From contig PLMA01000042.1 of assembly GCA_003141455.1 (NCBI GenBank), forward strand, positions 114,953-178,952: 64,000 nt of DNA. The letters run 5' to 3'. Position 1 is the first letter of the stretch. Each line of letters opens with the position of its first letter. The notes beneath the pieces were generated by a model that was not told where the DNA came from, ran no database searches, and was given only the letters and a program-made list of their open reading frames with translations. This stretch comes from Chloroflexota bacterium. GTDB lineage: Bacteria > Chloroflexota > Limnocylindria > Limnocylindrales > CSP1-4. Shown piece by piece: positions 5,404 to 32,861 of this stretch. The position numbers were made by a program, and so were the translations under genes.

Positions 5404-5493
5404 CCGGCAGTACCCGCCGGGCGCCCGGCAAAGCTTCCGCTCCGACCAGCCCGACGCCCGGTCTGGGGGCCGCGCCGATGTCTGCCGCCGGCA

Positions 5494-13606: not shown

Positions 13607-14833
13607 ATGACCGCCACACGATCCACGCCTGACGGCGTTCCTACGGCCACTCCCGTCGAGGGAGCGGTGCCGGTTTCGGCCGGCAGTGTTCCCCAGGACG
13701 CGGGCGGTGATTCGACTGCCGGACCGGTACGCGGACTCGGGCCCAAGGCAGCCAGCACGCGATCCGGCCGCCGGACGATCACCGTCGGCATCGTCGGGGC
13801 CACGGGATACGCAGGCGGCGAGCTCGTCAGATTGCTGTTGCATCACCCGAACGTCCGTCTGGCCGGGCTGTATGGCCGCAACCGCGACAAGGAGCCGATC
13901 GCCGCGTCGCACCCGAATCTCGGGGCCACGGGCCTGGTCATCGACCGGGCGATCCCGGAGGCCGACGCCATATTCACGGCTCTGCCATACGGCGCCGCGG
14001 CAGAGATGGCCGGCGAGATCGTGGCGCGCGGCTCCGCCCTGCTGGACGTTGGGCCGGACTTCCGCCTCCATGACCCGGCCGACTATCCGCGCTGGTACAA
14101 GTTCGACCACCCTGCTCCTGAACTGCTGGCCCAGGCGGTCTACGGCCTGCCCGAGCTGCACCGCGAGGAGATACGCGAGGCGGCCGATCGACCGACCACC
14201 ATCATCGGCCTGCCGGGTTGCTACTCGACGGCGACGATCCTTACCCTCGCGCCATTGGCGCGCGCGGGTCTGATCGCGGATCTGGCGGTCGACGCCAAGA
14301 GCGGCGTTTCCGGAGCCGGGCGCGAGCCCAAACCGGACCTGCTCTTCTCCGAGGTCAACGAAAGCGTCAGGGCGTACGGCATGTTCGGCCACCGCCACAC
14401 AGCGGAGATGGAGCAGGAGCTCGGGGAGCAGGGCGAGCGCGGAGCGATGGGCAGCCGCGACGCGAACCCCGGCGTCGCCACGGTCGACTTCCTGCCGCAC
14501 TTGATCCCAATGACGCGGGGCATCCTGACCAGCTGCCACGTCCGGACCACGCGGCCGGTCACGCAGGCCGAGCTGGACACCCTCTACGGTGAGGCCTACC
14601 GCGACGAGCCGTTCGTGCAGATCGTGGCCGATGCGCCCGCCACGAAACACGTCTTCGGCAGCAACCTGTGCCGGATCTGGGTCCGCGTGGATCCGCGCAG
14701 TGGCAAGGTGCTCGCCCTGGGCGTCATCGACAACCTGGTCAAGGGTGCCGCCGGCCAGGCGGTTCAGGCACTCAACGTCCTCTTCGGCCTGCCCGAGGCC
14801 GCCGGCCTGGAGCAGTACCCGATAGCGCCCTGA
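13607..14833 (+). CDS. argC: N-acetyl-gamma-glutamyl-phosphate reductase
   Basis: The dinucleotide-binding motif ITVGIVGATGYAGGELVRLL, the catalytic Cys motif GLPGCYSTA and the C-terminal HLIPMTRGIL are present. A ~55-aa N-terminal extension is implied if the leaderless ATG at 13607 is used. Confidence 0.85.
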   Translation: MTATRSTPDGVPTATPVEGAVPVSAGSVPQDAGGDSTAGPVRGLGPKAASTRSGRRTITVGIVGATGYAGGELVRLLLHHPNVRLAGLYGRNRDKEPIAASHPNLGATGLVIDRAIPEADAIFTALPYGAAAEMAGEIVARGSALLDVGPDFRLHDPADYPRWYKFDHPAPELLAQAVYGLPELHREEIREAADRPTTIIGLPGCYSTATILTLAPLARAGLIADLAVDAKSGVSGAGREPKPDLLFSEVNESVRAYGMFGHRHTAEMEQELGEQGERGAMGSRDANPGVATVDFLPHLIPMTRGILTSCHVRTTRPVTQAELDTLYGEAYRDEPFVQIVADAPATKHVFGSNLCRIWVRVDPRSGKVLALGVIDNLVKGAAGQAVQALNVLFGLPEAAGLEQYPIAP

Positions 14834-14901
14834 GACCCTCTACCGCGAACCGTCGCACAGCCCAGCCGATTGCCGGCGCCAGTGGGAGGCAAGCCAGTCC
14901 G

Positions 14902-16299
14902 ATGCAGCCGGGTTCCGACCGCTCCTCGAAAGCGGGGGCGTCGCTGGGCGACGTGCTGGCGCCTCTGACGAACCCGCTTCCGCCCGTCGAAGAGCGAGCC
15001 GTCATGCCGTCCGGATTCCGAGCCGCGGGGCTGGCGTGCGGGATCAAGCCATCCGGCCGGCCGGATCTGGCTCTCGTGGCGACTCTGGACGGGCCGGCGG
15101 CCGTCGCCGCGGTCTTCACCCGCAATGCGGTCGTCGCCGCGCCGATTCGGCTGTCGCGGGCCCATCTCAACGCCACGGAGATCGGCGGTGGCGGACGGTT
15201 CGGCTGGGCCGATGCGGTGGTGGCCACGGCCGGCTCCGCGAACGCGGCCACTGGCCCCGAAGGCGACGCGGACCAGGAGGAGCTGAGCAGGGCGGTCGCC
15301 GCGCTGCTGAACACGGAGCCCGAACGGACGCTCGCCCTCTCGACCGGCGTCATCGGCGTGAGACTTCCGATGCCGCAGGTCTGCGACGGCGTGGCCCGGC
15401 TCGTGGCGCTGTTGGAGCCGACGAATGCAGGTCTCGAGGCGTTCGCGACGGCGATCATGACCACGGACACAAAGGTCAAGCTCGCCACTACGTCGGTCGA
15501 GCTGCCGGGGCCGGACGGCAAGGGGGTCACGGTCACGGTCTCCGGGATAGCCAAGGGCGTCGGCATGATCCATCCGCGCATGGCCACGATGCTCAGCCTC
15601 ATCCTGACCGACGCGAGCGCGTCGCCGGCGACGCTCTTCGGCCTGCTGTCTCCGGCCGTGCAGCGGACGTGGAACCAGACCAGCGTCGACGGCGACACCA
15701 GCACCAACGACACCGTCTTCCTCCTGGCGTCGGGCTCGTCGAAGGCCCGCGTCGTGGCGACCGCCAGCCCCGACGCTGAGATCCTGGGCCGGGCCGTCGA
15801 GTCGGTGGCGAGATCCCTGGCCCGCCAGCAGGCCGCCGACGGCGAGGGCGCGACGACTCTCATCACATGCCAGGTGAGCGGCGCGGCGGACGACTACGAC
15901 GCTCGCGCCATTGCCCGCGCCGTTGTGAGCAGCAGCCTCCTCAAAGCCGCCGTCCACGGCCGCGACCCCAACTGGGGCCGCGTCGCGAGCGCCGCCGGCA
16001 ACGCCCGCCTCCCAGAGGAGCAGCTCCTCGAGGCGGCGGGCCTGCACCACACCGAGGCCATGCCTCGAGCCGGCCGATCGCCCGAGCTGGAGGTCGACCG
16101 CCTGCGTATCGCCATCGCCGGAACTCTCGTCTTCGCCGGCGCTCCCCTCCCCTTCGACCGGGACGCGGTCCGCGCGGCGATGAATGCTCCCGAGGTGCTC
16201 ATCCGCCTTGACATGGGTCTGGGCGACGGCATCGGTGAAGCGTTTGGCTGCGATCTGACCGAGGGCTACGTCATCGAGAACGCGGAGTACACGACGTGA
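14902..16299 (+). CDS. argJ: Bifunctional glutamate N-acetyltransferase/amino-acid acetyltransferase
   Basis: ArgJ motifs PSGFRAAGLACGIKPSGRPDLALV...ATMLSLILTDA...TSTNDT are present. I chose the ATG at 14902, which follows a GGGAGG RBS. The alternative ATG at 15004 gives the canonical N-terminus MPSGF. Confidence 0.8.
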   Translation: MQPGSDRSSKAGASLGDVLAPLTNPLPPVEERAVMPSGFRAAGLACGIKPSGRPDLALVATLDGPAAVAAVFTRNAVVAAPIRLSRAHLNATEIGGGGRFGWADAVVATAGSANAATGPEGDADQEELSRAVAALLNTEPERTLALSTGVIGVRLPMPQVCDGVARLVALLEPTNAGLEAFATAIMTTDTKVKLATTSVELPGPDGKGVTVTVSGIAKGVGMIHPRMATMLSLILTDASASPATLFGLLSPAVQRTWNQTSVDGDTSTNDTVFLLASGSSKARVVATASPDAEILGRAVESVARSLARQQAADGEGATTLITCQVSGAADDYDARAIARAVVSSSLLKAAVHGRDPNWGRVASAAGNARLPEEQLLEAAGLHHTEAMPRAGRSPELEVDRLRIAIAGTLVFAGAPLPFDRDAVRAAMNAPEVLIRLDMGLGDGIGEAFGCDLTEGYVIENAEYTT

Positions 16300-17108
16300 G
16301 CGAAGTGCTCGTCCTCAAGCTCGGCGGGACAACGCTCGCCGACCAGGCGCACGTCCTCGACGAGGTCGCTACGGTCGCTCGTGGGCGCCCCGTCGTCCTG
16401 GTCCACGGCGGCGGAAAGCGCATAACCGAATGGCTGGAGCGTCTCGGCGTCCCGAGCCGGTTCGAGGGAGGGCTTCGCGTAACGGACCAGGCCGCGCTGG
16501 ACGTTGCCGCGGCCGTTCTCCGGGGTGTGGTGAACTCAGAACTGGTCTCCGACCTGCGCGACCGTGGCGTCGACGCGGTGGGGCTCTCCGGCGTCGACGG
16601 CGGCTTCATGATCGCCGAGCGCGTCCCCGGCCTTGGGCTTGTGGCTCACATCGTCGGCGTCAGGCGCGACTTCCTGGACACGCTGCTGGTGGCCGGGCAG
16701 GTAGCCGTGGTGGCGCCGCTCGCCCGCGACGAGCAGGGGATCGTCTGTAACGTCAATGCGGACGACGCCGCCGCCGGCATCGCGGCGGGGCTCGGTGCCC
16801 GCCAGCTCGTCCTGATGACCGACGTCGACGGCGTCCGCGACGCGGCTGGCGAGAAGCTTGCCGCCATGACCGCGGATCAGGCCGAGAAGCTGATCGCCGA
16901 CGGCGTGATCAAGGGCGGCATGGTGCCCAAGATCCGGGCCGCCCTGCAGGCGGTCAACTGGCCGGGCGCCGAGGCGGTCATCGCGGATTCCGCCGACCCG
17001 CATGCCCTGACGCGCGCACTCTCCGACCCGACCTTCGGGACCCGAATCACGCGCCATGAACGGCGGGCGTCACGCCAGGCCAATGAAGCCTCCGCCGGAC
17101 CGGCGTGA
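16296..17108 (+). CDS. argB: Acetylglutamate kinase
   Basis: 270-aa ORF with a GTG start overlapping the argJ stop. Amino-acid kinase family motifs VLKLGG, VLVHGGG and NVNADDAAAGIAAGLGA are present. Confidence 0.85.
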   Translation: MSEVLVLKLGGTTLADQAHVLDEVATVARGRPVVLVHGGGKRITEWLERLGVPSRFEGGLRVTDQAALDVAAAVLRGVVNSELVSDLRDRGVDAVGLSGVDGGFMIAERVPGLGLVAHIVGVRRDFLDTLLVAGQVAVVAPLARDEQGIVCNVNADDAAAGIAAGLGARQLVLMTDVDGVRDAAGEKLAAMTADQAEKLIADGVIKGGMVPKIRAALQAVNWPGAEAVIADSADPHALTRALSDPTFGTRITRHERRASRQANEASAGPA

Positions 17109-17112
17109 TCGG

Positions 17113-17658
17113 ATGACCTCGATGATCCTCAACGGCAGCCAGATCAACGCCAAGCAGCGCCGCCAGCGCATCCTCCTGGAACTCGTCGCCCGCTCGGCGA
17201 TCGGCAGCCAGGAGGAGCTCGTGGAGTTGCTCCGCGAGGCCGGCTTCGAGGTGACGCAGGCGACCGTCAGCCGCGATGCCGCCGAGCTCGGACTGGTCAA
17301 GGTGCCCCGCGGCGACCGCCATGTCTATGCCACGCCCGAAACCGCGGCCACCGGCGACGTCTACGACGCCAGGCTCCGCCGGCTGCTCGAGGACATCCCG
17401 GTTCGCATCGCGCGGAGCGGCCTCAGCCTCGTCTTGCTGGCGACGCCGGGCTCGGCCGGGGCAATCGCCCAGGCCATCGACCAGTCCAGCCTGCTCGACC
17501 AGATCGGCACCCTCGCCGGCGACAACACGCTGCTAGTGCTCTTCGAGACCGAGGCCGCCCTCGAACGGTGGCTGGTCCGCTTCGAGAGCTATCAACCGGC
17601 CGGCGCCGACAAGCTGCTGCCCGCCCGACCTTTTGCCAATTCGGAGGCACCTCGATGA
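17113..17658 (+). CDS. argR: Arginine repressor
   Basis: A winged-helix N-domain (QRRQRILLELVARSAIGSQEELVELLREAGFEVTQATVSRD) and a C-terminal oligomerisation/arginine-binding domain (GDNTLLVLFETEA). The ATG lies 5 nt after the argB stop. It is embedded in the arg operon as in actinobacteria. Confidence 0.75.
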   Translation: MTSMILNGSQINAKQRRQRILLELVARSAIGSQEELVELLREAGFEVTQATVSRDAAELGLVKVPRGDRHVYATPETAATGDVYDARLRRLLEDIPVRIARSGLSLVLLATPGSAGAIAQAIDQSSLLDQIGTLAGDNTLLVLFETEAALERWLVRFESYQPAGADKLLPARPFANSEAPR

Positions 17659-18941
17659 AGAAAGTAGTGCTCGCCTACTCCGGTGGACTCGACACCTCGG
17701 TCGCCGTCGCCTGGTTGCGCGAACAGTACGACGTTGAGGTTGTCACGCTCACCGTCGACCTGGGCGGCGGCGTGCTCAAGGAAGATGTCGACCGACGGGC
17801 GATCAGTGCCGGAGCGACTCGCGCATACGTGGTCGACGGACGAGAGCACTTCGTGCGCGATTTCTGCTGGCCTCACGTCCAGGCCGGCGCCCTGTACCAG
17901 GGTGTCTACCCGCTGGCCACGGCCATGGCTCGGCCGCTGATCGCCCAGCTGCTGGTCGAGGTCGCTCACAAGGAAGGAGCCCAGGCCGTTGCCCACGGCT
18001 GCACCGGCAAGGGCAACGATCAGGTTCGCTTCGACGTCGCCACGCACGCGCTCGATCCATCTCTTGCCGTCATCGCCCCGATGCGCGTCGGCATGGGCCT
18101 GTCCCGCGAGCAGGAGATCGAGTACGCCAAGGCGCGCAACATCGAGATCACGATCTCGAAGGAGTCGATCTACTCCATCGACGTGAACCTGTGGGGCCGC
18201 TCGATCGAGGCCGGCAGCCTCGAGGATCCGTGGACTGCGCCACGCGAAGACGTCTACCGCTGGACCGTGGATCCCGACAAGGCGCCCGAGCCGGTCGAGA
18301 TCGTGATCGGCTTCGAGGGCGGCGTCCCCGTCTCGCTCGACGGGGAACGGCTCGGTCCCGTGACCCTGGTCGAGCACCTCCACGATCTCGCCGGCGCTCA
18401 CGGCGTCGGACGCGTCGACCACGTCGAAGACCGCCTGGTCGGCATCAAGAGCCGCGAGATCTACGAGGCTCCCGCCGCCACGGTCATTTATCGCGCCCAC
18501 CGCGCCCTGGAGGGCCTGACGCTCTCCAAGGACACGTTGCGCTTCAATCGGCTCGTGGCCGACGAGCTGGCCCAGCTCACCTACGACGGGCTCTGGTTCA
18601 GCGCCCTGCACCGCGACCTGCGCGCCTACGCGGCGAGCAGCCAGCGCGTGGTCAGCGGCGACGTCCGCATCCGACTCGACCACGGCACCGCAATGGTCAC
18701 CGGCCGGCGCAGCCCACTGTCTCTGTATGACAAGGCCCTGGCTACGTACGAGGCGGACGACAGCTACGACCACGCCGCGGCGGTCGGTTTCATCGAGATC
18801 TTTGGGCTGCCGCTGCGGACCGAAGCCGCCCGCCACGGAGCCGTCGGCAGGAGCCACGGCGCGGCCTGGACCTGGACCGATCCACTCCTCGAAAGCCTGC
18901 CGACGAAGGTCTTCGACGCCCCGCCGGCGGCGGTTGACTAG
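17655..18941 (+). CDS. argG: Argininosuccinate synthase
   Basis: The N-terminus is MKKVVLAYSGGLDTS (PP-loop). The ATG at 17655 follows a GGAGG RBS and overlaps the argR stop (ATGA). 428 aa. Confidence 0.9.
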   Translation: MKKVVLAYSGGLDTSVAVAWLREQYDVEVVTLTVDLGGGVLKEDVDRRAISAGATRAYVVDGREHFVRDFCWPHVQAGALYQGVYPLATAMARPLIAQLLVEVAHKEGAQAVAHGCTGKGNDQVRFDVATHALDPSLAVIAPMRVGMGLSREQEIEYAKARNIEITISKESIYSIDVNLWGRSIEAGSLEDPWTAPREDVYRWTVDPDKAPEPVEIVIGFEGGVPVSLDGERLGPVTLVEHLHDLAGAHGVGRVDHVEDRLVGIKSREIYEAPAATVIYRAHRALEGLTLSKDTLRFNRLVADELAQLTYDGLWFSALHRDLRAYAASSQRVVSGDVRIRLDHGTAMVTGRRSPLSLYDKALATYEADDSYDHAAAVGFIEIFGLPLRTEAARHGAVGRSHGAAWTWTDPLLESLPTKVFDAPPAAVD

Positions 18942-18969
18942 GAGGCCCGCCCTGGGCGCAGACGAACAG

Positions 18970-20385
18970 ATGGCCAGCTCGATCGAACCGGCAAAGGCCC
19001 GTGGGCCGGCCGGTCGGCCCACGCCCGCGGCAGCCCGGGGCGGCGCCGGGAGCTCGACGGATGCCGAGCGCAAGCTGCGCGAGCTGGAGTTCCTGCACGA
19101 GTTCGCCAAGCTGCTGACCACGGCCCGAAACTGGGACGAACTGATGCGGACCATCGTCGACCGGACGACAGACGCCCTGAACGTTGAGGTCTGCTCCGTA
19201 TACATCATGGAGCGCGACGAGGCCCGCCTGCGCCTGGCCGCCACCAACGGCCTGGACCGCGACCAGATCGGACTCGTCGCCATGGCCCTTGGTGAAGGCC
19301 TGACCGGTCGAGCGGCCCAACTGGGCCAGCCCGTGGCTTCGCCGGACGTTCGAGTGGACCCGCTCTTCAAGTGGGTACCGGGCTTCGACCAGTCGCAGTT
19401 CACGTCGATGCTCTCGGTGCCTATGCCCTGGAACGACACGATCGTCGGCGTGGTCAACGTCCAGGCCATCGAGACCCGCACGTTCTCGCCCGAGGAGGTC
19501 GAATTCCTCGTGACCATCGGGGCGCTGCTCGGCGGCGTCGTGGAGAAGGGTCGCCTGCAGGCCGAGGCCCAGGAGCAGGTGGAGACCCTCACCGCGCTCG
19601 ACGGCGCCCGCGCCGAGTTGCTCGCGGTCGTGACTCACGAGTTGCGCACGCCGCTGGCCGTGGTGCGGGCATATCTGGATCTGATGGCGGATGCTGCCGT
19701 CGACGCGACCGGAGGCGGCCCCCGCGACGACCAGGGCGCGATCGCCGGCCCGCGCCCCAGCCCGGCGCTCGTCGAGGAATGGCGGGCCCAGGCTACCGCC
19801 CAGGTGACGCGGCTGGATCGGCTCGTCGACTCCATCCTGGCCTCGGTTCGGGGCGAGGGCCTGGCCGCCGGGCTGGCTCGCGATGCCTTCGACGTCGCCA
19901 CGGCCGTGAACGATACGATCGGCGAGATGACGCCGCTGCTGCGCGGACACCCTCTCCGGCGGAGCGGAACGTCGGAGGCCCTGATGGGGATCGGCGACGA
20001 GGGCCGCTTCCGCCAGGTCCTGGAGCACCTCCTGGAGAACGAGGTCAAGTACTCGCCCGAGGGCGGTTCCGTGAGCGTGGGGGCCTTGCGCAAGGACTCT
20101 GAGGTTCTGGTGTATGTCACCGATGACGGCCCCGGCATCCCGGAGCCGGAATGGGAGTCCGTCTTCGATGCCTACGTTCGCACGGCCAACCGACCTCGCG
20201 GCTCCGGGATCGGCCTGTACGCCGCCAGGCGGCTCATGGGAGCCATGGGCGGTCGCGTGTGGCTCGAGTCGAACGGGTTCGGCGGAACCCGGTTCATGGT
20301 GGCCGTGCCCGAGATGCGCCAAACTGACGAAGGCACAGCCGGTCCGGAGGCAGGTGTAATGTCCGAGGCAGGGCCGGAGGCGTAG
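18970..20385 (+). CDS. GAF-domain sensor histidine kinase
   Basis: An N-terminal GAF-like domain is followed by an H-box (VTHELRTPLAVV) and an HATPase_c domain (N, G1 and G2 boxes: LENEVKYSPEGG, DDGPGIP, GSGIGLYAA). The ORF upstream of 18970 is low-complexity and is probably not translated. Confidence 0.75.
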   Translation: MASSIEPAKARGPAGRPTPAAARGGAGSSTDAERKLRELEFLHEFAKLLTTARNWDELMRTIVDRTTDALNVEVCSVYIMERDEARLRLAATNGLDRDQIGLVAMALGEGLTGRAAQLGQPVASPDVRVDPLFKWVPGFDQSQFTSMLSVPMPWNDTIVGVVNVQAIETRTFSPEEVEFLVTIGALLGGVVEKGRLQAEAQEQVETLTALDGARAELLAVVTHELRTPLAVVRAYLDLMADAAVDATGGGPRDDQGAIAGPRPSPALVEEWRAQATAQVTRLDRLVDSILASVRGEGLAAGLARDAFDVATAVNDTIGEMTPLLRGHPLRRSGTSEALMGIGDEGRFRQVLEHLLENEVKYSPEGGSVSVGALRKDSEVLVYVTDDGPGIPEPEWESVFDAYVRTANRPRGSGIGLYAARRLMGAMGGRVWLESNGFGGTRFMVAVPEMRQTDEGTAGPEAGVMSEAGPEA

Positions 20386-20406: not shown

Positions 20407-21120
20407 GTGAACGGAATGGGTCCGAATGGGGAGACCAGCCTGCTGGTACTCGTCGTCGACGATGAGCCCGCCATGGTCGGCGCCGTCTCGGCTCTCGTCG
20501 GACGCGCCGGCCACCGCGTTGTCACCGCATATGACGGCAACACGGCCCTGCGCCGTTTCTCGGAGGAGCGGCCGGACCTCGTTCTCCTCGACCTGGCCAT
20601 GCCGGGCCTGGACGGAGTCGAGGTCTGCCGGGCGATCCGGCGCATGTCGCAGACGCCGATCATCGTCCTGACGGGCGAGTCGGACGAGCGAGCCAAGGTC
20701 GAGGCGCTCGACATGGGGGCGGACGACTACGTGGTCAAGCCCTTCGGCAAGCAGGAGCTCCTGGCCCGTATCCGAGCCGTCATGCGGCGTCGAGGCAACG
20801 ACGCGGAGCCGCGAGGCGCCGGGGAGCTGCGCTGGGGATCGATCGTCCTGGACCGGGGTCGCCACACCGCCTCCGTCGCGGACGCCCAGCTCGTCCTCAC
20901 ACGCACCGAGTACAGCCTGCTCGCGTCACTGGTTGCCGCCGCTGGCCATGTGGTTTCGCACAGCGCGTTGCTGAACGCCGGCTGGCCCGGCGAGCCCAAC
21001 CCGGATCCGCAGTGGCTCAAACCCCACCTGGCCCGCCTGCGCTTCAAGCTCGGCGAAGCTGGCGCGCCCGTGCCGGCCTCGGTCCGCGGCGTGGGCTACC
21101 GCCTGGAAGAAGCCGGCTAG
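20407..21120 (+). CDS. OmpR/PhoB-family DNA-binding response regulator
   Basis: A receiver domain (LVVDDEPAM...DLVLLDLAMPGLDG...DDYVVKPF) plus a C-terminal winged-helix domain (VGYRLE). It is 22 nt downstream of the kinase. Confidence 0.85.
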   Translation: MNGMGPNGETSLLVLVVDDEPAMVGAVSALVGRAGHRVVTAYDGNTALRRFSEERPDLVLLDLAMPGLDGVEVCRAIRRMSQTPIIVLTGESDERAKVEALDMGADDYVVKPFGKQELLARIRAVMRRRGNDAEPRGAGELRWGSIVLDRGRHTASVADAQLVLTRTEYSLLASLVAAAGHVVSHSALLNAGWPGEPNPDPQWLKPHLARLRFKLGEAGAPVPASVRGVGYRLEEAG

Positions 21121-21238: not shown

Positions 21239-21790
21239 ATGGGTAGGGCGGGAGCCGAGGGAGTCATGAGGGTGGAACCGATACAGCTATCGGTCGTGGG
21301 GGACGACCCTTTCGACATCTTTGCCGCGCTGACGCCTCATCATCTCGACAGGGCCTACAGGCTTGCCTGGGCGATACTCGGCAACGATGAGGAGGCCCAG
21401 GACGCCACCCAGGACGCGCTGACCGTCGCGTGGCGACAACGCCGCAGCCTTCGCGACCCGGGCAAGCTGGAGGCCTGGCTGGGGCGGATTCTGGTGAACA
21501 CATGTAGGGACCACCTTAGAAGGCGGGCGCGAAGCCGCAGCCAACCGCTGGAGTTGGGCCCCCTGCCCTCCGTCTCCGACGGCAGCCGGGCTGCCGAAAG
21601 CCGCGACCAGCTTGGCCGAGCCCTCGGAGCCCTCAACCCCGATCAAAGGATCGTGGTCGTCCTGAGGTTCTGGGCCGATCTGACTGTCGACGACATTGCG
21701 GACCGGCTGGGCGTACCGGCCGGCACCGTGAAATCGCGCCTTCATCATTCCTTACGCGCGCTCCGCTCGACTTTGGAGGAACCTCGATGA
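21239..21790 (+). CDS. ECF-family RNA polymerase sigma factor (sigma-70 regions 2 and 4)
   Basis: Region 2 is AYRLAWAILGNDEEAQDATQDALTVAW. Region 4 is VVLRFWADLTVDDIADRLGVPAGTVKSRLHHSLRALR. Its stop overlaps the start of the downstream membrane protein (ATGA). Confidence 0.85.
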   Translation: MGRAGAEGVMRVEPIQLSVVGDDPFDIFAALTPHHLDRAYRLAWAILGNDEEAQDATQDALTVAWRQRRSLRDPGKLEAWLGRILVNTCRDHLRRRARSRSQPLELGPLPSVSDGSRAAESRDQLGRALGALNPDQRIVVVLRFWADLTVDDIADRLGVPAGTVKSRLHHSLRALRSTLEEPR

Positions 21791-24528
21791 CTGACGACGA
21801 GCTGGGCCAGCGTCTTCAGGAGGAGCTTCACTCGCGGATCGACCCGCCCGTGGCTGCTCCCGACGCCATACACGAACACGTCGTGAATCTTCGTTCTATG
21901 CAAGAGGTCCGACGGGGCGAGCCCGGCTACCGGGCGCACTCGCTCAGAAACCTCTTCGCGGTCGCGGCGGGTTTCGCGATCGTCGCTCTACTGACAACCG
22001 GACTGCTCTCCTGGCAGTCGCTCAAGCCACGAACGGGCACGGTGAGCGCAGTCGGCGGGATCGAGATGTTCGGGCGGTTGGACTCGAAGGTCGCCTGGGC
22101 TGAGTCCGGCTCAGACCTGTATGTCACTCGCGACGGCGGGGTTTCCTGGTCACGAGGGACTGTACCGGGCGGGCGTTCGCTCGGCCAACTCGCAGCCTCC
22201 AATTACGCGACAGATGCGCCGGCGCTCAGCACGCCTACACCCGTGGGTCCCGATGCAGGGCCAGCGTCCAGCGTTGAGCCCGTCGGAGCAAGCTCGATTT
22301 TTGGCTTCTTCCCAGACCATCTGTATCCGACCTTTGTCGACGCCGACCACGGCTGGCTCCTCTCGTGGACGGTGTCCAACGCAACGAGCCTCCAGACGGC
22401 GGCGTGGACTCTCACTGTGCATAGGACGAAGGATGGCGGCCAGACGTGGGAGTCGACCCAGCTGCCCGGTACCTACAAGGGCTACGGAATGACCCAATTC
22501 GTCGACTCCCAGCATGGATGGGTAGTGGTCTACCGGATGGACTACGCCATGTCGGCCGGCGGGGGGAGCGGCCCTGAGCCCTCGCCGATGCCCTCTCCGA
22601 CGATGCCGTCCGATACCACGACGGTCCTGGCAACGAGTGACGGCGGAGTCACCTGGTCGCCGGCCTCGACCCTCGGGGCGCTGGCCCTCGTGCAGTTCAC
22701 GAGCGTATCCGAGGCCTGGGGCACCGAGAGCGGCTACAGCAGTGGAGCGGCCGCCGTGGTCCACTCAACCGATGGCGGCCACACTTGGTCCCGATCGGTT
22801 CTCCCCTTGCCGCAATGCAGCACACTCCCGAACGCGGCCTCCATACCGGCGCGAGCAAACGGGTTGCTCGAGCTACGGCTGGGGTGCGACCAGACCGGCA
22901 ACGTTACTGGGGGCTCCCCATATGCGCTGCTGACCTTCGTGAGCGTCGATGACGGCCAAACCTGGACCCTCGAGTCGACGAGCCAGGTTGACGGCGCCCT
23001 CTTCAACGTCAGCATGGCCTCGGTCTTGAACCTCCCCGCAGGGCAGCCCATCGTCGCCTACAGCCCCTACGGGACATACACGGGCACAGGCCCAATGCCG
23101 CTGAAGGCGACCTTCGACGGCGGGAAGACCTGGGCCACATACGCCACGGCCGGCCTACCATCCACCGTCACAGTGGCCGAGTGGGCCTCTCCCGACGACG
23201 TCTGGGTCATGGTCGGACCTGCTGGCTCCCTGGCGGGAACGCTGGCGGGCCGGTTGTACTCGACCGCAGACGCCGGCAAGACATGGACGTCCTTGCTGGG
23301 TGCGCCGGCCTGGCCTGCCTCACCGGCGCCGGCGATCACCCCGGAAATCATCTACGTGACCAACCCTCCGGTCCCGATTAGCTCCGAGGCGCCAACCCGG
23401 ACCGGACCATCGATCGCCTCCTACGGTCGGGTCGACGCCAAAGCCGGCTGGGTCGTAGTGGCCGAGTCGACGGGCAGCTACGACGTGAGACTTACGCAGG
23501 ACGGCGGGGTGACCTGGTCCGAGCCGCGAGCCATGCCGAGTGGCGGAGACGTCCAGTTCGTCGACGCGGACCACGGCTGGATCCTGACATCGGATACGGA
23601 GGGCCAAGGTGCCGCCGGCGGCTACTCGGCTGTGGTGTTGTGGACAGCAGACGGCGGACGCACCTGGGACAAGCCCGCGGGGATCGACCTGGGCGCTCTG
23701 CAGGGCAATCCGCAGAAGACCTTTGCTTCTACCTCGATCCACTTCCGAGATACTCTCCACGGCGAGTTGTATGCCGCCTTCGGGTCTAGCTCCGACGGCC
23801 CGACCTCAGCACCAACCGCATCGCCGGCCACGGCAGCGGTGTGTGAGCAGTTCTCAACCGCCGACGCGGGGGCAACATGGTCGAAGCCGAGAAGCGCGCC
23901 CTGCATGACGCAAGTGAGCTTCGAGGACGCCTCGCTCGGGTATGGCAGCGATTTGCTGCTGACTCCAGTCATACACGTCTCCGTAGACGGCGGCCAGAGT
24001 TGGATCGACGCCAATCTGCCGCTTCCCTCGGGGGTGAGCGCAGGGAGCTCCAACGGGGCAATCGTCAAGCTCCTGGAACATCGTGCGGACGGTACCTTGC
24101 GAGCGATGGTCGAGTGGAGCAACGGTCCGGCCGTCACGACGATCGTCGTCAGCGCCGATGGCGGGAGGACCTGGACGTCGGCCGGAACCGCTCAAGGCTT
24201 CTCCGCCTACGGTTATGCCGTCGCATCGCTCGGCGAGGGCAACTGGCTCGCCCTGGGGCAGACGCTCACGCCCGGCGCCACGCCGTTCGCTCTCGACGCT
24301 CGCGTCACCGACGATGGCGGCCTTACCTGGAAAGCGATCACAGCCCAGGGGCTGCCGGCTTACCCGACTACACCATTCTTCGTGAGCGCGACGGACGGGT
24401 GGGTGGCAGCCGTCGACCCCGTCTGCGACGCCTCCTCCACCGGCAGGCAAAGCTGCCCCCTGGCAACTTGGTCTATATACGGCACCAAGGATGGCGGCGT
24501 GACCTGGAAGGCAATCCTCACTCCGTAA
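21787..24528 (+). CDS. Membrane-anchored BNR/Ycf48-like repeat (beta-propeller) protein; putative anti-sigma factor cognate to the upstream ECF sigma
   Basis: 913 aa. A ~55-aa cytoplasmic N-terminus is followed by one TM helix (LFAVAAGFAIVALLTTGLL) and then about 14 repeats of the S-x-D-G-G-x-T-W motif (TRDGGVSW, TKDGGQTW, TSDGGVTW, STDGGHTW ... TKDGGVTW). It is translationally coupled to the sigma gene. Confidence 0.8.
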   Translation: MTDDELGQRLQEELHSRIDPPVAAPDAIHEHVVNLRSMQEVRRGEPGYRAHSLRNLFAVAAGFAIVALLTTGLLSWQSLKPRTGTVSAVGGIEMFGRLDSKVAWAESGSDLYVTRDGGVSWSRGTVPGGRSLGQLAASNYATDAPALSTPTPVGPDAGPASSVEPVGASSIFGFFPDHLYPTFVDADHGWLLSWTVSNATSLQTAAWTLTVHRTKDGGQTWESTQLPGTYKGYGMTQFVDSQHGWVVVYRMDYAMSAGGGSGPEPSPMPSPTMPSDTTTVLATSDGGVTWSPASTLGALALVQFTSVSEAWGTESGYSSGAAAVVHSTDGGHTWSRSVLPLPQCSTLPNAASIPARANGLLELRLGCDQTGNVTGGSPYALLTFVSVDDGQTWTLESTSQVDGALFNVSMASVLNLPAGQPIVAYSPYGTYTGTGPMPLKATFDGGKTWATYATAGLPSTVTVAEWASPDDVWVMVGPAGSLAGTLAGRLYSTADAGKTWTSLLGAPAWPASPAPAITPEIIYVTNPPVPISSEAPTRTGPSIASYGRVDAKAGWVVVAESTGSYDVRLTQDGGVTWSEPRAMPSGGDVQFVDADHGWILTSDTEGQGAAGGYSAVVLWTADGGRTWDKPAGIDLGALQGNPQKTFASTSIHFRDTLHGELYAAFGSSSDGPTSAPTASPATAAVCEQFSTADAGATWSKPRSAPCMTQVSFEDASLGYGSDLLLTPVIHVSVDGGQSWIDANLPLPSGVSAGSSNGAIVKLLEHRADGTLRAMVEWSNGPAVTTIVVSADGGRTWTSAGTAQGFSAYGYAVASLGEGNWLALGQTLTPGATPFALDARVTDDGGLTWKAITAQGLPAYPTTPFFVSATDGWVAAVDPVCDASSTGRQSCPLATWSIYGTKDGGVTWKAILTP

Positions 24529-24777
24529 TGGGGTTCCGGCGGGTCCACGTATCCAAAGAGCGCCGCCGTCAGCCACAAATCGCCCGGCGGCGCCGCACGA
24601 GAACGACCGGCCGCCCGAGCCGCACCAGGCCTCACCCAAGAATCAACGAACCCGCGCTACCTGCCGAAAGGTGCGCGGGTCGATGTTCTGTGAGCCGTCT
24701 TGTCTGGCGGCGCCGGGGTCCTCAGCCGGCCAAGGAGGCGAGAAACGACCGCGACTGCTCGAGGTCGAGAGGTTCTA

Positions 24778-24858
24778 CTCCTCCGCCTTGGCGCGAGACG
24801 GTGCTACGAACCAACCTACGACCAGGACTCCGAAACTTAGGAAGGCGGCTGCGATCAC
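24778..24858 (-). CDS. Candidate 27-aa hydrophobic micropeptide (V/M-IAAAFLSFGVLVVGWFVAPSRAKAEE)
   Basis: A GTG start is preceded by a perfect AAGGAG 6 nt upstream. A single TM-like segment is predicted. It lies 70 nt downstream of the second 5x11-bp repeat array, on the amt strand. Confidence 0.3.
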
Positions 24859-24927
24859 TCTTGGCTCCTTCGGCTGAACCGCGGGACCCTCGTCCCATTC
24901 ACTGATCGGGAGTTTATGGCCCGTGCC

Positions 24928-25002
24928 GGGCGAAATCAGTAGCGCCCGAGTAGACCAGTGGTGACGCTCCGGTGACGCGCGGGTTGCGGTTCGGGACGGC
25001 CG
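24928..25002 (-). promoter_or_regulatory. Array of five phased 11-bp direct-repeat units (GTnnC + 6-nt spacer, read on the + strand). A paralog of the element upstream of amt. Candidate OmpR/PhoB-family (GlnR-like) operator.
   Basis: The + strand reads gaaatcaGTAGCgcccgaGTAGAccagtgGTGACgctccgGTGACgcgcggGTTGCggttcgggacggc. This is 75% identical over 69 ungapped nt to 26487-26555. Confidence 0.5.
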
Positions 25003-25168
25003 ATCAGTCGACGAGAGTTTCCGACGAGGGTCCCCAACGCAGCCCCGTTCAAGAGGGTGCGGCGACGACAACCCAGCGGGTCCGTGCTGGGACTATGGCG
25101 ACCCGGGTGCGAAGGGGAGGCACCGAGGTCGCCATCGCGGCGGGAGGCGGCAGTCTGGCTGGTCCAGG

Positions 25169-26410
25169 CTAGGCCTGGTAGACGACCACCTCGCCGTGCT
25201 GGGAGGAGTCGAGGCCGGCTTCCTCTTCGGACTCCTCCACGCGGAGGCCCACGAAGAAGTCCACGACCTTGAGAATCGCGAAGGTGGCGACGCCGCTGTA
25301 GATCCACGTGGCGGCCACCGCGATGAGCTGCTTGCCGAGTTGGCTGGCATTGCCGTCGATGAGGCCCGAGGCGCCGTTGACCGCGGCGACCGCGAAGACG
25401 CCGGTCAGAATCGCGCCGAGTGTTCCACCGACGCCGTGGACCGCCCAGACGTCGAGGGCGTCGTCGACCTTGAGCCTCTCGCGCAGCAGGATCGCGCCGT
25501 AGCAGACCGACCCGGCCGCGAAGCCGATGATGATGGCCGCGCTCGCGTCCACGTATCCGGAGGCCGGCGTAATCGCCACCAGCCCGGCCACGCCTCCTGC
25601 CACCGCCCCGACGACGCTCGGCGTGCCCTTGTGCAGCCAGCTGACCGTGACCCAGGTGAGGGCGGCCATGCCGGCGGCCGTGTTCGTGACGACGAACGCA
25701 TTGGCCGCCAGGCCGTTCGCCGCGAGGGCAGAGCCGCCATTGAAGCCGAACCAGCCGAACCAGAGCAACCCGGCGCCGATGACCGTCAGGCGGACGTCGT
25801 GCGGCTCGAAGCGCTCGGATTCTCGCTTGACCCGCGGGCCCAGCACGAGCGCCGCGATCAGCGCCGCGACACCGGAGCTGATGTGGACGACGGTGCCACC
25901 TGCGAAGTCGATGGCGCCCAGCTTGTTGAGCCAGCCGCCCTGACCCCAAACCCAGTGGGCGATCGGCGAGTAGACGAGGAGGGTCCACAGGAGCGAGAAG
26001 AGGACGAAAGCCTTGAAGCGCTTCCGCTCGGCGAAGGCGCCAGTAATCAGAGCCGGCGTGATGACCGCGAACATCATCTGGAAGGCCATGTAGGCGCTGG
26101 CCGGGATGGTCGGCGCATATGAGATCGGGTCCTTGCCGATGCCGTGCAGGCCGATGAAGTCGAGGCCGCCGATGATGCCCCATCCGTTCACGTCCGTCCC
26201 GAAAGCAAGCGTGAAGCCGATCAGGACCCAGGTGACGCTGACCAGGGCCAGGATGAAGACGCTGTGCATGATCGTGCTGAGCACGTTCTTGCGGCGGACC
26301 AGGCCGCCGTAGAAGAGGGCGAGACCGGGCGTCATCAACATGACGAGCGCCGTCGAGGTCAGTACCCAGGCGGTGTCGCCACTGTCGATCGGATGTCCCG
26401 TCAAGATCAC
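25169..26410 (-). CDS. amt: Ammonium transporter (Amt/MEP family)
   Basis: 413 aa with 11 TM segments and the Amt signature motifs DFAGGTVVHISSG...GAVAGLVAITPASGYV...HGVGGTLGAILTGVFA. GTG start with an AAAGGGGA RBS. There is no glnK downstream. Confidence 0.9.
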   Translation of the reverse strand: MILTGHPIDSGDTAWVLTSTALVMLMTPGLALFYGGLVRRKNVLSTIMHSVFILALVSVTWVLIGFTLAFGTDVNGWGIIGGLDFIGLHGIGKDPISYAPTIPASAYMAFQMMFAVITPALITGAFAERKRFKAFVLFSLLWTLLVYSPIAHWVWGQGGWLNKLGAIDFAGGTVVHISSGVAALIAALVLGPRVKRESERFEPHDVRLTVIGAGLLWFGWFGFNGGSALAANGLAANAFVVTNTAAGMAALTWVTVSWLHKGTPSVVGAVAGGVAGLVAITPASGYVDASAAIIIGFAAGSVCYGAILLRERLKVDDALDVWAVHGVGGTLGAILTGVFAVAAVNGASGLIDGNASQLGKQLIAVAATWIYSGVATFAILKVVDFFVGLRVEESEEEAGLDSSQHGEVVVYQA

Positions 26411-26482
26411 TCGCGTCCCCTTTCGAATCCGTGGAATCCCGGCGCAGGTGGCGCCCGACGACCGAAGGGTAAGGATGCGGTT

Positions 26483-26556
26483 CGGGGAAATCAGTAGCCG
26501 TCGGGTGACCCCTGGGTCGCGCTCAGGTGGCGCCCGGGTTGCCGTTCAGGACGGCT
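26483..26556 (-). promoter_or_regulatory. Array of five phased 11-bp direct-repeat units located 77-145 nt upstream of the amt start codon. Candidate OmpR/PhoB-family (GlnR-like nitrogen regulator) operator.
   Basis: The + strand reads gaaatcaGTAGCcgtcggGTGACccctggGTCGCgctcagGTGGCgcccggGTTGCcgttcaggacggc. The five GTnnC pentamers are spaced exactly 11 bp apart. Confidence 0.5.
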
Positions 26557-26601: not shown

Positions 26602-26883
26602 CTAGCTTGCGGCGGCCTCCAGCGGAGTGGTCCGATGCGGCAGGTCGAGGCACGCAATCCGGCAGCCGCGCGCGTCGTGCCCGGGAGCTCCCAGGAAATG
26701 GCGCCAGGCTGCGTCGGGGCCGAGCATGCCGCCATCGGCAAGCGATTCGCGTGACGTGAGGCGGCAGCCGCAGGCGGCGCAGGTCAGGACGAACGAGTCC
26801 TCCCGGCGCATGGCACGCGGGTAAGGCAACTCCCCCACCGGCTCGAACTCATGCAGCTTCATCGGTCCCAGTCCAGGGCGCAC
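26602..26883 (-). CDS. Hypothetical small Cys-containing protein (93 aa), downstream of the Kelch-repeat gene
   Basis: Open reading frame with a GTG/ATG start. Contains CxxCxC and CxxxC clusters. I recognise no family. Coding status is uncertain. Confidence 0.25.
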   Translation of the reverse strand: MRPGLGPMKLHEFEPVGELPYPRAMRREDSFVLTCAACGCRLTSRESLADGGMLGPDAAWRHFLGAPGHDARGCRIACLDLPHRTTPLEAAAS

Positions 26884-30139: not shown

Positions 30140-31555
30140 CTAGAGCCCCAGGCGTTCCCTGGCGGCCGCGAGGGCCGTGGCGACGCGACGAGGGGCGGTC
30201 CCGCCTACGACGTCGCAACTGGCCAATGCGCCTTCCAGCGCGGCCGCGGCGCGCAGCTCCCCGGGGAGGGCGGAGTCACCCATGATCGTGAGCGCAACCG
30301 AATCGTCGGACGTGGCCAGGGCCGCCGCGATCGTGGCGTCGTCCAGCGCCTCGAGCCCGATTCCGGCCCTCTCCGCCTCGGCGACGAGCGTCCCCACCAC
30401 GTGGTGGGCGGCGCGAAATGCCACTCCCCGGCGGACGAGGGCGTCGGCGACGGCCGTGGCCGTGGTGTATCCCTCTCCCGCCGCCGCCCGCATACGCTCC
30501 CGGTCCACGGTCAGCGTCTCGACCATCCCGGCCATCACCGCGAGCGAGGCCTCGAGCGTGGCCGCCGCCTCGAAGAGTGGCGGCTTGTCTTCTTGCAGGT
30601 CCCGCTGATACCCGAGCGGCAGCCCCTTGAGCAGCGCCAGAAGACCCGTCAGCGAGCCGATGACCCGCGCTGCCCGGCCTCGCACCAGCTCGGCGGGATC
30701 GGGGTTCTTCTTGTTCGGCATCATCGACGAGCCGGTGGAGAACGAATCGGCCGCCCGCACGAACCCGAACCGCGGATTCGACCACCACGTGATCTCCTCC
30801 GCCAATCGGCTGAGATGGACCATGCAGAGCGCGAAGGCGGCGAGCGCTTCGGCCACGAAATCGCGGTCGCCGACGGCGTCGAGCGAATTGGCCGTCACAC
30901 CGTCGAAGCCGAGCTCCGCGGCCGTCGCTTCGCGATCGAGCGGGTAGCCCGCGCCCGCCAGCGCGCCCGAGCCCAGCGGTGAGACGTTCGCCCGCCGCCG
31001 GCAGTCGGCCAGCCGACCCCTGTCGCGCTCGAGCATCTCGACGTAGGCCAGCAGATGGTGAGCGAACAGGATCGGCTGGGCGGGCTGGATGTGAGTGGAG
31101 CCGGGCATGATCGCATCGCCGTCACGTTCGGCGAGCCGGACGAGCGCCCGCTCCATCTCCAGGACTGCCTCGTCCAGGCCGTCGATCGTTCGCCGCAGCC
31201 ACAGCCGCAGGTCCGTGGCGACCTGGTCGTTGCGCGAGCGGCCGGTGTGCAGCCGACCGGCGATCGGTCCAACCCGGTCCCTCAAGGCCTCTTCGAGGTT
31301 CATGTGGACGTCCTCGAGGGCCGGATCCCAGGCCAGGCTGCCCTCCTCGACTTCGGACCGCAGCCCTTCGAGCCCATGCACGAGCGTCTCGACCTCGTCG
31401 GGGGCCAACAGGCCCGCCCGGCCAAGGCCGTGCACATGGGCGATCGAGCCGGCGATGTCGTCGAGCGCAAGGGCGCGATCGACATCGATCGACCGGGTGA
31501 ACTCGGCCACCCGATCGTCAGTCGTGCCTTCGAATCGACCGCCCCAGAGCCGCAT
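30140..31555 (-). CDS. argH: Argininosuccinate lyase
   Basis: 471 aa from MRLWGGRFEG. Fumarate-lyase signature GSSMMPNKKNP. A GGAGGAGG RBS sits upstream of the ATG at 31555. The longer ORF reaching 31693 is an over-extension. Confidence 0.9.
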   Translation of the reverse strand: MRLWGGRFEGTTDDRVAEFTRSIDVDRALALDDIAGSIAHVHGLGRAGLLAPDEVETLVHGLEGLRSEVEEGSLAWDPALEDVHMNLEEALRDRVGPIAGRLHTGRSRNDQVATDLRLWLRRTIDGLDEAVLEMERALVRLAERDGDAIMPGSTHIQPAQPILFAHHLLAYVEMLERDRGRLADCRRRANVSPLGSGALAGAGYPLDREATAAELGFDGVTANSLDAVGDRDFVAEALAAFALCMVHLSRLAEEITWWSNPRFGFVRAADSFSTGSSMMPNKKNPDPAELVRGRAARVIGSLTGLLALLKGLPLGYQRDLQEDKPPLFEAAATLEASLAVMAGMVETLTVDRERMRAAAGEGYTTATAVADALVRRGVAFRAAHHVVGTLVAEAERAGIGLEALDDATIAAALATSDDSVALTIMGDSALPGELRAAAALEGALASCDVVGGTAPRRVATALAAARERLGL

Positions 31556-31637
31556 CGGTCCTCCTCCATCGCGCCGTTGCCGGCATGGTACCGGGCGACG
31601 GGGGCTGACGCGAGTCGCCGCTCGCAAATGGTTGCCC

Positions 31638-32861
31638 CTACGCGGTCCCGCCGACCGACTCTGCCGCGATCCGGTCCGATGCCGTCTCGTCATGGGGAAG
31701 GGCCACGAGCCCGATGAAGCCGCCGATCACCGCGCAGACGGCCCCCACTCCAAAGACGCCCAGCGCCCCGGCCTCCGCGTAAAGCAGTCCGCCTAACAGG
31801 TTCGCGAGGATCGCGGCCAGACCGAAACCGGTGGCCTGAAGAAGAGTCTGGCCGGTCGCCTGCAGACGCTCGGGAAGAATTCGAGCAATCGTCAGCACCA
31901 ACGACATGAGAATGCCGCCAAAGAAGATCCCCGAGGCGAACCGCGTCATCAGGATCGGGCCGGCGTCGACCAGCACTATCCAGCTCACCATGCACGCCGC
32001 GAACCCCACGGACGACACCAGCAGAACGGACCGCATGCCAAGCCGGCCAACGAGCCAGCCGGCCAGGATGAGCCCGGGCACCTCGGCCGCCCAGGCGACG
32101 CCGTTTGCGAACCCGACCTCGACGGCCCCGCCGCCCAGGTCCGCTATCCGCAGGGAAATGTACGTCCCGGACGCCATGCAGCCCATGAAGACGAAAATGA
32201 CCGCGAGCAGAACGGCCACCAGCCGAGGTCGGATCCTGAACGCCTCTCCGACGGACCCGAAACGCCCCCGTTCATGGGAGAGACGATCACGTCCGTCGAG
32301 CGCGCGCCGGGCGTTCTCGTGGCGCTCGCTGTCCCGTCCCATCGGGACGAACTGGGCCGAGATGAGCGCCAGGGCCATCGTCGCGATGTACAGGAACGGC
32401 GCGGCCACGTAGCCGGTCTGGCTGTAGACGATGCCGCAACCGATCGCCCCGCCGGCCGCACCGGCGCTGCTCAACAGCCGAAGTCGCGAGTACTCGCGAG
32501 AAACATCGGTCAGGACCGGTAGGGCCATGGCGTCGGTCAGGGCCATGATCGGGCCGCCGCCGGCGCAAATGAGTATCTGGCAGACGATCACCGCCGCGAC
32601 GGGGAGTGGCACGCTGAAGCCCAGCGCGAAGACGGCCGCCGGCAGGCAGGCGATCTGCAGCGCACGCCTGGGTCCGCTTACGACGTCGCCCACGTGACCC
32701 CAGACCGGCAGCGCCAGGGTGTAGGCAACCGAGCCCAGGCTTGTCGTCAGCCCGATCAGGGCCGGATCGAATCCCTTCGCCTGCAGCAGAACGGGCACGA
32801 AGCCGTACAGGGCGCCGACGGCAAGCCCGTTGGAGACGTACAGGGCCCGCAACCAACGCAC
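31638..32861 (-). CDS. MFS transporter
   Basis: 407 aa with 12 predicted TM helices. The hydrophobicity pattern and loop motifs are typical of the major facilitator superfamily. Confidence 0.7.
   Translation of the reverse strand: MRWLRALYVSNGLAVGALYGFVPVLLQAKGFDPALIGLTTSLGSVAYTLALPVWGHVGDVVSGPRRALQIACLPAAVFALGFSVPLPVAAVIVCQILICAGGGPIMALTDAMALPVLTDVSREYSRLRLLSSAGAAGGAIGCGIVYSQTGYVAAPFLYIATMALALISAQFVPMGRDSERHENARRALDGRDRLSHERGRFGSVGEAFRIRPRLVAVLLAVIFVFMGCMASGTYISLRIADLGGGAVEVGFANGVAWAAEVPGLILAGWLVGRLGMRSVLLVSSVGFAACMVSWIVLVDAGPILMTRFASGIFFGGILMSLVLTIARILPERLQATGQTLLQATGFGLAAILANLLGGLLYAEAGALGVFGVGAVCAVIGGFIGLVALPHDETASDRIAAESVGGTA

Follow-up and report, generated by a model that had tools for sequence, protein, structure and literature searches.

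The locus studied here raises the question of whether a pair of repetitive intergenic elements beside an ammonium transporter gene acts as DNA, bound by a regulatory protein, or as RNA. It lies in a 64,000-nucleotide (nt) stretch of a Chloroflexota genome of the order Limnocylindrales (contig PLMA01000042.1, positions 114,953 to 178,952; hereafter the window, whose own numbering is used throughout). In this window amt, coding for a 413-amino-acid (aa) ammonium transporter with a GTG start (PF00909), occupies 25169..26410 on the minus strand, and the closest named relatives of the protein, 88-93% identical, come from metagenome bins of Candidatus Limnocylindrales (Chloroflexota). A first-pass annotation, made from the sequence alone, had described two paralogous 75-nt elements bracketing amt, each composed of five perfectly phased 11-base-pair (bp) units, and had favoured a protein operator over a riboswitch. 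The analysis presented here indicates that each element is very probably an untranscribed OmpR/PhoB-type operator array lying within a promoter, and that among known array types the closest is the actinobacterial GlnR box (AC-n9-AC).

Two co-oriented arrays bracket amt

Both elements were found at the places described. Because amt runs on the minus strand, the sequence as previously written has to be reverse-complemented to obtain its functional reading, and in that reading the two elements are co-oriented with amt. Element B, the putative operator array of the amt promoter, covers 65 bp 5' of amt (26489..26553, minus strand, CGTCCTGAACGGCAACCCGGGCGCCACCTGAGCGCGACCCAGGGGTCACCCGACGGCTACTGATT), and element A, that of the small-ORF promoter, covers 65 bp 5' of a 27-aa open reading frame (ORF) (24934..24998, minus strand, CGTCCCGAACCGCAACCCGCGCGTCACCGGAGCGTCACCACTGGTCTACTCGGGCGCTACTGATT). 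Their 65-bp cores are identical at 48 of 65 positions without gaps, in agreement with the 75% over 69 nt reported earlier, and, as had also been stated, the flanks of A and B bear no relation to each other. The existence of the elements thus stands, but the 75-nt length and the plus-strand reading do not, the conserved block measuring 65 bp with its last unit overlapping a -35-like hexamer. One end of the block carries GAAATCAGTAGC on the plus strand (24932-24943 and 26487-26498) and the opposite conserved end carries GCCGTCCYGAACSGCAACCCG on the minus strand (24980-25000 and 26535-26555); each end motif occurs exactly twice in the 64 kb, with 0.01 occurrences expected for the longer one.

In copy B, five GNNAC units (GTNNC when read on the plus strand) follow one another exactly every 11 bp, and copy A has GNNAC in four of five units, unit 4 being TCTAC. 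The exact phasing claimed earlier therefore holds, but the count of five units does not: a distal sixth unit, in phase but degenerate, (A/C)C, brings each element to six. In copy B the AC (or CC) dinucleotides fall at 26550-49, 26539-38, 26528-27, 26517-16, 26506-05 and 26495-94, and copy A has the same six-unit architecture. A four-unit GNNAC pattern matched twice in the window, with 0.04 matches expected, and in 0 of 100 shuffles. When a four-unit weight matrix was run over the whole window, the two copies scored 36.1 and 35.0 bits and the next site 2.4, while the maxima of 20 shuffles did not exceed 17.1. Copy B is located 77-146 nt upstream of the amt GTG (26410), nearly identical to the 77-145 nt given before. 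Copy A is located 3' of the amt stop codon, ~74 nt upstream of the small-ORF GTG (24858), where 70 nt had been given.

Homologous arrays precede amt paralogues or a 27-aa ORF

Further copies were collected from metagenome contigs with a pattern requiring ACTGATT and TAnnnT, which returned 108 stretches, and an nhmmer profile of the 67-nt element was run on the fetched loci. In what follows, L001 is the window's own contig, L002-L081 are 80 amt loci of other lineages and L082-L193 are Limnocylindria-type loci. The 80 loci came from a genome search anchored on the Amt protein and belong to many phyla, with Amt proteins at most 71% identical; they were uninformative for orthologous promoters and served as the negative control set and as the source of L012, a locus to which we return below.

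With nhmmer, 168 copies homologous to the window's elements were identified in metagenome contigs of relatives (Candidatus Limnocylindrales, Chloroflexota). An amt paralogue follows 103 of them, and the small ORF follows 58, plus two truncated ones; the rest have no callable ORF or a broken one downstream. Wherever the downstream gene could be recognised, it was an amt paralogue or the conserved 27-aa ORF, and the orientation of the copies as well as their distances to the -10 hexamer and to the gene start were constant. The gene order amt1, amt2, small ORF, with an element copy before each gene, was seen in the protein-anchored loci L082 and L085, and all amt paralogues of the cluster carry their own array. 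The element thus recurs in relatives and is present in their orthologous amt promoters, the two comparisons on which the earlier proposal had been made to depend. Other arrays were sought with the four-unit matrix. None was found in the 64-kb window, and the one kind of site that turned up in 630 kb of related contigs is antisense and sits, in two loci, where the kinase and regulator genes introduced below meet; the DNA covered included no glnA, gltB or nirB promoter. The antisense array-like sequence (L103, 11228-11271, plus strand, 25.1 bits; L143, ~4015-4058, 15.8 bits) has no score in the window, and may be due to chance or to a coding-sequence effect.

The arrays end in a -35-like hexamer followed by a conserved -10

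We considered the 136 unique copies together. Counting back exactly 65 nt from the last base of ACTGATT, information content rises abruptly, from ~0.2 to 1.4-2.0 bits, and the consensus reads cGTcCcgAAc.gCAACC...gCGccACC.gagCGc.ACC...gg..cACc.g..cGctACTGATT. Conservation is carried by AC every 11 bp plus the flanking CG..ACC, with the positions between varying freely, and the information profile shows a broad peak at periods 11-12. When units 1-5 were pooled (680 units), the unit consensus was sCGCnACCsrn, with A and C each at 99% and G at -3 at 84%.

The nearly invariant ACTGATT contains the -35-like hexamer CTGATT, located at 26489..26494 (minus strand) in the amt promoter and overlapped by the promoter-proximal unit; it shares three of six bases with TTGACA. 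A putative -10 hexamer lies 17 bp past CTGATT in both promoters: TACCCT at 26466..26471 for amt, and TAAACT at 24911..24916, following CTGATT at 24934-24939, for the small ORF (all on the minus strand). In relatives, the -10 is found at +17 in 125 of 125 unique strict copies (TACGCT 60, TAGACT 40, others 25), and that of the orthologous small-ORF promoters is mostly TAGACT. Since the collection pattern itself demanded a -10, we also checked the 23 nhmmer copies that fail the strict pattern. All 23 have TAnnnT 16-18 bp past CTGATT, 20 of them at exactly +17 and three at +16 or +18. The amt promoter of L012, which belongs to a distant lineage and was not selected by the pattern, is built in the same way, with five phased xxxxACC units, CTGACA, 17 bp and TAGCGT.

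The 17-bp spacer is not conserved and differs among gene classes. In amt1-type promoters (L082, L086, L108, L171 and others; 26472-26488, minus strand, in the window) it repeats the distal array motif CGAACCGCA, 64 bp downstream of the first copy. The repeat is present in 10 of the 12 promoter copies assigned to amt1. It does not keep the 11-bp phase of the units and may represent a second site for a protein.

No conserved promoter-like motif was detected upstream of the array, and a canonical sigma-70 promoter scan of the region returned no promoter. Together with the poor -35, the latter result fits a weak, activator-dependent promoter. An array that ends in a -35-like hexamer and is followed by TAnnnT at 17 +/- 1 bp places the element upstream of the likely transcription start. 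With the -10 set at -12 to -7, the six units would span approximately -96 to -31, the proximal unit covering the -35; the amt transcript is predicted to start near 26459, giving a 5' untranslated region (UTR) of ~49 nt. The earlier preference for an OmpR/PhoB-type operator over a riboswitch is thereby strengthened, the supporting observations being the invariant AC at 11-bp intervals, the downstream -35 and -10, the complete lack of conserved RNA pairs and of an Rfam match (see below), and a GlnR-like regulator gene nearby.

Relation to GlnR boxes and PHO boxes

Actinobacterial GlnR recognises Gn2AC-n6-GnAAC or GTnAC-n6-GTnAC, with an AC-n9-AC core whose adenines and spacing are essential for binding (PMC3662644). 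The Streptomyces coelicolor amtB promoter has three GlnR boxes, i.e. six sites, and cryo-electron microscopy has shown four GlnR protomers arranged head to tail around -35, contacting sigma region 4, the beta flap and alpha (PMC10235972). Operators of both GlnR and PhoP are made of 11-nt direct-repeat units in arrays of up to seven, and PhoP also binds nitrogen-gene promoters, among them that of amtB in Streptomyces (PMC3561978).

The arrays described here resemble the GlnR boxes of S. coelicolor and of Mycobacterium amtB in several respects: 11-bp direct repeats, AC-n9-AC within GnnAC-n6-GnnAC, contiguous sites, a location upstream of, and around, the -35 in the promoter of an ammonium transporter, and a regulator (here a candidate) of the OmpR/PhoB family. 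They differ in that the host belongs to the Chloroflexota rather than the Actinobacteria, and in that the 22-bp GlnR box pairs an a-site (gTnAc) with a b-site (GaAAC), whereas our units follow a uniform sCGCnACC without alternation, only unit 1 (GCAAC) resembling a b-site. GlnR, moreover, is an orphan, atypical regulator, but the candidate has canonical phospho-acceptor residues and a cognate soluble GAF kinase, and keeps only part of the GlnR DNA-contact residues; and amt here is followed by neither glnK nor glnD. With PHO boxes and the OmpR sites F1-F3 and C1-C3 the arrays share tandem 11-bp units, one per protomer, a conserved core with weaker extension units, and a proximal unit that replaces a poor -35, and arrays of up to six or seven units are documented (PMC3561978). 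They differ from these in unit sequence and in their targets, which are ammonium transporters and not phosphate or porin genes; no phosphate-related gene lies near them.

We conclude that the arrays appear to work like GlnR/PhoP operators but are not demonstrably members of a GlnR regulon, because a/b alternation is lacking, the phylum is a different one, the candidate regulator is not an orphan, and only amt and the peptide gene are seen as targets. A literature search of incomplete coverage found no paper on GlnR-type regulation in Chloroflexi, which is weak evidence of novelty.

A candidate two-component system is encoded beside the arrays

We looked for a regulator that could bind the arrays. 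A 237-aa response regulator of the OmpR/PhoB family (Response_reg and Trans_reg_C domains) is encoded at 20407..21120 on the plus strand, 3.7 kb from copy A. Directly upstream, at 18727..20385 (plus strand), is the gene for a histidine kinase with GAF, HisKA and HATPase_c domains, the candidate sensor. The ORF overlaps argG with its 5' part, so that the true start is probably the ATG at 18970; in the kinase, no sensor domain of the membrane or extracellular kind was detected. In L085, a Response_reg and Trans_reg_C gene is convergent with the small ORF. A tblastn search with the C-terminal 127 residues of this L085 protein found a gene 84-98% identical in ~25 related loci, directly after the small ORF in ~20 of them. 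The position of the kinase gene directly upstream is conserved in 18 related loci, and the regulator is always so preceded.

The receiver domain has what we take to be the canonical acidic pocket (DD), acceptor Asp, Thr and Lys. As a whole, the regulator resembles RegX3, MtrA, PrrA and PhoP, and its top NCBIfam models are MtrA, RpaB and PhoB, every one below the equivalog cut-off. A different picture was obtained with the DNA-binding domain alone: when it is compared with solved structures, three of the first five matches, 8hih_O (E 2e-9; the best), 8hml_A (E 7.9e-8) and 8hig_A, are GlnR. 8HIH is the Mycobacterium tuberculosis GlnR transcription activation complex and 8HML the DNA-binding domain of GlnR from Saccharopolyspora erythraea on DNA (PMC10235972). 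About one third of the residues of the domain are identical to those of M. tuberculosis GlnR. Of the GlnR residues listed as contacting DNA (PMC10235972), T151, W179, H193, R196, R198, R213 and Y217 are kept in the regulator.

The control set offers a further comparison. Only one of the 80 amt loci of other lineages, L012, has homologues of the kinase and the regulator. L012 comes from an uncultured Chloroflexia metagenome-assembled genome whose Amt is 64% identical to that of the window, and the homologues (42% for the kinase and 56% for the regulator) flank its amt gene at 2383-2748 and 4404-5894. The same locus has the sole strong array of the set, scoring 26.1 bits versus 14.2 for the next. 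Taken together, these observations tip the balance slightly in favour of the neighbouring GAF kinase and regulator pair as the binder of the array.

Proposed mechanism and alternatives

We propose that each element makes up the upstream half of a sigma-70-type promoter that depends on an activator, the array extending from approximately -96 to -31. OmpR/PhoB-family protomers would bind the array as DNA, head to tail on one face of the helix, and would recruit RNA polymerase, as structural work has shown GlnR to do at the M. tuberculosis amtB promoter. The neighbouring pair would be the most likely regulator, its soluble histidine kinase having a GAF domain and its phosphorylatable response regulator a DNA-binding domain like that of GlnR. 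The targets would be every amt paralogue of the cluster and the 27-aa membrane peptide, all of them served by separate copies of the promoter. The transcription start, activation in place of repression, the identity of the binder and the nitrogen signal are all points that we infer. More tentatively, the genes could form a hitherto undescribed circuit of Limnocylindria-type Chloroflexota in which the GAF kinase, possibly sensing 2-oxoglutarate or glutamine directly, phosphorylates the GlnR-like regulator, which from the six-unit arrays would then activate each amt paralogue and the peptide gene; the peptide may in that case be an Amt-associated subunit or regulator that replaces an amt-linked GlnK.

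Several observations weigh against this proposal. In the DNA covered, amt was the single nitrogen gene found with the array, so that amt alone points to a nitrogen regulon. Most copies were gathered with a pattern requiring ACTGATT and TAnnnT, and the unbiased ones are the 23 additional nhmmer copies, the L012 promoter and the protein-anchored loci. Start sites were placed from hexamer conservation only. In the distal part of the array, an off-phase GAAC is highly conserved and the unit model leaves it unexplained. The regulator does not have the GlnR contact residues K153, R188, T189, R195 and N214, so that retention is only partial, and the window shows no array ahead of its kinase and regulator genes. 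Finally, the regulator gene is out of reach of the amt cluster in several long loci.

The last of these observations bears on the binder. Loci such as L086, L113, L164, L178 and L189 have no regulator gene near the cluster, and it is conceivable, if a good deal less probable than binding by the neighbouring pair, that the same kind of operator is bound by another OmpR/PhoB-family protein encoded elsewhere, the pair being unrelated to it. Candidates for such a protein would be a genuine orthologue of GlnR, or a regulator like PhoP or MtrA that ties nitrogen uptake to phosphate or another signal. Units such as CGCCACC and GGTCACC resemble Streptomyces PHO direct repeats, PhoP binds the amtB promoter of Streptomyces (PMC3561978), and the whole regulator next to the arrays scores best, albeit always below cut-off, against the MtrA, RpaB and PhoB models. 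Against a distant regulator, the kinase and regulator pair is syntenic in ~20 loci, the pair and the array occur together in the distant L012 while both are absent from the other 79 amt loci, and GlnR is the best solved-structure match of the neighbouring regulator's DNA-binding domain.

Alternatively, the array could be a repressor site, protomers on -96 to -31 occluding the -35 and shutting the genes down, for instance when nitrogen is in excess. Repression is within the repertoire of OmpR-family regulators, GlnR and PhoP among them (PMC3662644; PMC3561978), the proximal unit does overlap the -35-like hexamer, and the amt1-type spacers hold a second CGAACCGCA. We nevertheless regard activation as more likely and a repressing role as improbable: with three of six bases the -35 is poor and no canonical promoter was detected, as is typical of promoters that require an activator, and the geometry, with sites upstream of and overlapping the -35, is that of activating GlnR and PhoB layouts (PMC10235972).

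The element is unlikely to act as RNA

A riboswitch had been considered in the first-pass annotation, with a glnA RNA or Downstream-peptide arrangement in mind, and the element does share with these RNAs its nature as a nitrogen-related cis element upstream of an amt-type gene or a very small ORF. Under this alternative, transcription starting upstream or reading through from amt would carry the element into RNA, where it would serve either as a riboswitch or leader (for example a glutamine-riboswitch-like one followed by a peptide ORF) or as a periodic site to which an RNA-binding protein attaches. Both elements are in sense orientation before genes, one of these being a tiny peptide ORF as in the Downstream-peptide arrangement, and no intrinsic terminator was detected between amt and element A, so read-through RNA could include A. 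The structural evidence is against it. RNAalifold, applied to 66 diverse copies (pairwise <86% identical), predicted 0 pairs and 0 kcal/mol in both sense and antisense. Single-sequence minimum free energies of both copies on both strands gave z scores between -0.59 and +1.62, none significant relative to shuffles. The covariance-model check suggested earlier was carried out: Rfam gave no match for the whole window at the gathering score and nothing relevant at E <= 10 in two focused scans that included the small-ORF leader, glnA RNA (RF01739) and Downstream-peptide (RF01704) being among the models without a match. The element differs from both RNAs, therefore, in having no model match, structure or covariation, and also in sitting upstream of the -10, outside the 5' UTR. 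Its 5' edge is abrupt with no promoter-like motif upstream, and the conserved -35 and -10 lie at its 3' edge. Since conserved pairs and an Rfam match are lacking and a conserved -10 lies downstream, we exclude a riboswitch-like role for the element itself and consider an RNA-level function in general largely refuted and very improbable.

Sites for NtcA, TnrA/GlnR-MerR, NtrC and AmtR are dyad-symmetric, with palindromic half-sites. The repeats found here are direct, with no conserved inverted repeat, and the lack of conserved self-complementarity excludes nitrogen-regulator sites of these types. A dispersed (REP- or MITE-like) repeat devoid of regulatory meaning, suggested by two similar copies within 1.6 kb of otherwise unrelated intergenic DNA, is refuted by the context data and scarcely credible, as there are only two copies in the window, orientation and distances to the -10 and the gene start are fixed, the only genes downstream are amt paralogues or the small ORF, and neither terminal inverted repeats nor self-complementarity is present.

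The 27-aa ORF is a conserved gene with a structured leader

The ORF downstream of element A (24775..24858, minus strand, GTG start) is preceded by the Shine-Dalgarno sequence GAAGGAG and encodes the hydrophobic peptide MIAAAFLSFGVLVVGWFVAPSRAKAEE. Relatives have 43 distinct variants of the form MIA(A/V)AF(V/L)SF..LVV(A/G)WF(V/I)APSRA..AE, and entropy by codon position is 19.8 / 16.7 / 28.8, third positions varying most. What had been noticed as a tiny, ribosome-binding-site-preceded hydrophobic ORF is thus a genuine conserved gene; the peptide matches no Pfam family. In every case the gene closes the amt cluster and has an array promoter to itself. An origin of the small ORF as a relic of a lost second amt was considered and rejected, since it is conserved as a gene of its own and comes after amt2 wherever amt2 exists.

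The leader of the small ORF (24859..24905, minus strand), as distinct from the array, contains two small conserved hairpins. Hairpin 1, GGGAC...GTCCC (GGGAY-loop-RTCCC), shows UA-to-CG compensatory changes, and hairpin 2, GGUUC...GAGCC, pairs the Shine-Dalgarno sequence. RNAalifold on 28 small-ORF leaders predicted eight pairs, three of them with compensatory changes. The hairpins could be a 5'-end stabiliser or a translational control element. A further GC-rich hairpin, GCCAAGGAGGC...GCCTTGGC, spans the small-ORF stop codon (24729-24792) and gave a spurious weak tRNA-Sec match; it is not a classical intrinsic terminator because it has no T-tract.

The earlier remark that no glnK follows amt can be extended: a search with a PII query sequence found no GlnB/GlnK homologue either in the 64-kb window or across the Limnocylindria-type amt loci. 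Among the 80 loci from other phyla, glnK is directly beside amt in most.

Genomic surroundings

Arginine-biosynthesis genes surround the region at 14668-18941 (plus strand) and 30140-31693 (minus strand); they code for ArgJ, for argininosuccinate synthase and lyase, and for an amino-acid kinase that is probably argB. The regulator gene and the small ORF are separated by the genes of an ECF sigma factor (21239-21790) and of a 913-aa protein with BNR repeats (21787-24528), which most relatives do not have at this place. Directly upstream of the amt promoter, a 92-aa Cys-containing ORF (26602-26883, minus strand) has no match among Pfam and NCBIfam families; in L085 its position is taken by a called but unannotated gene of ~87 aa (86 aa in L001).

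Implications

Limnocylindria (Ellin6529 and relatives) are abundant in soils and freshwater. To our knowledge they have no cultured representative and their gene regulation is undescribed. For ammonium uptake in this group, the arrays provide a precise cis-element together with a candidate sensor-regulator pair. They also point to a conserved, co-regulated 27-aa membrane peptide at amt loci without glnK, a cheap target for synthesis and for Amt interaction studies. For annotation, they are a caution that periodic elements of this sort should not be labelled riboswitches. The most novel part is the circuit that we infer, in which a soluble GAF kinase and a GlnR-like regulator would act on amt paralogues that have no glnK beside them and on a conserved 27-aa membrane peptide. 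The arrays suggest that control of the GlnR-box type is not confined to Actinobacteria and can be coupled to a conventional kinase.

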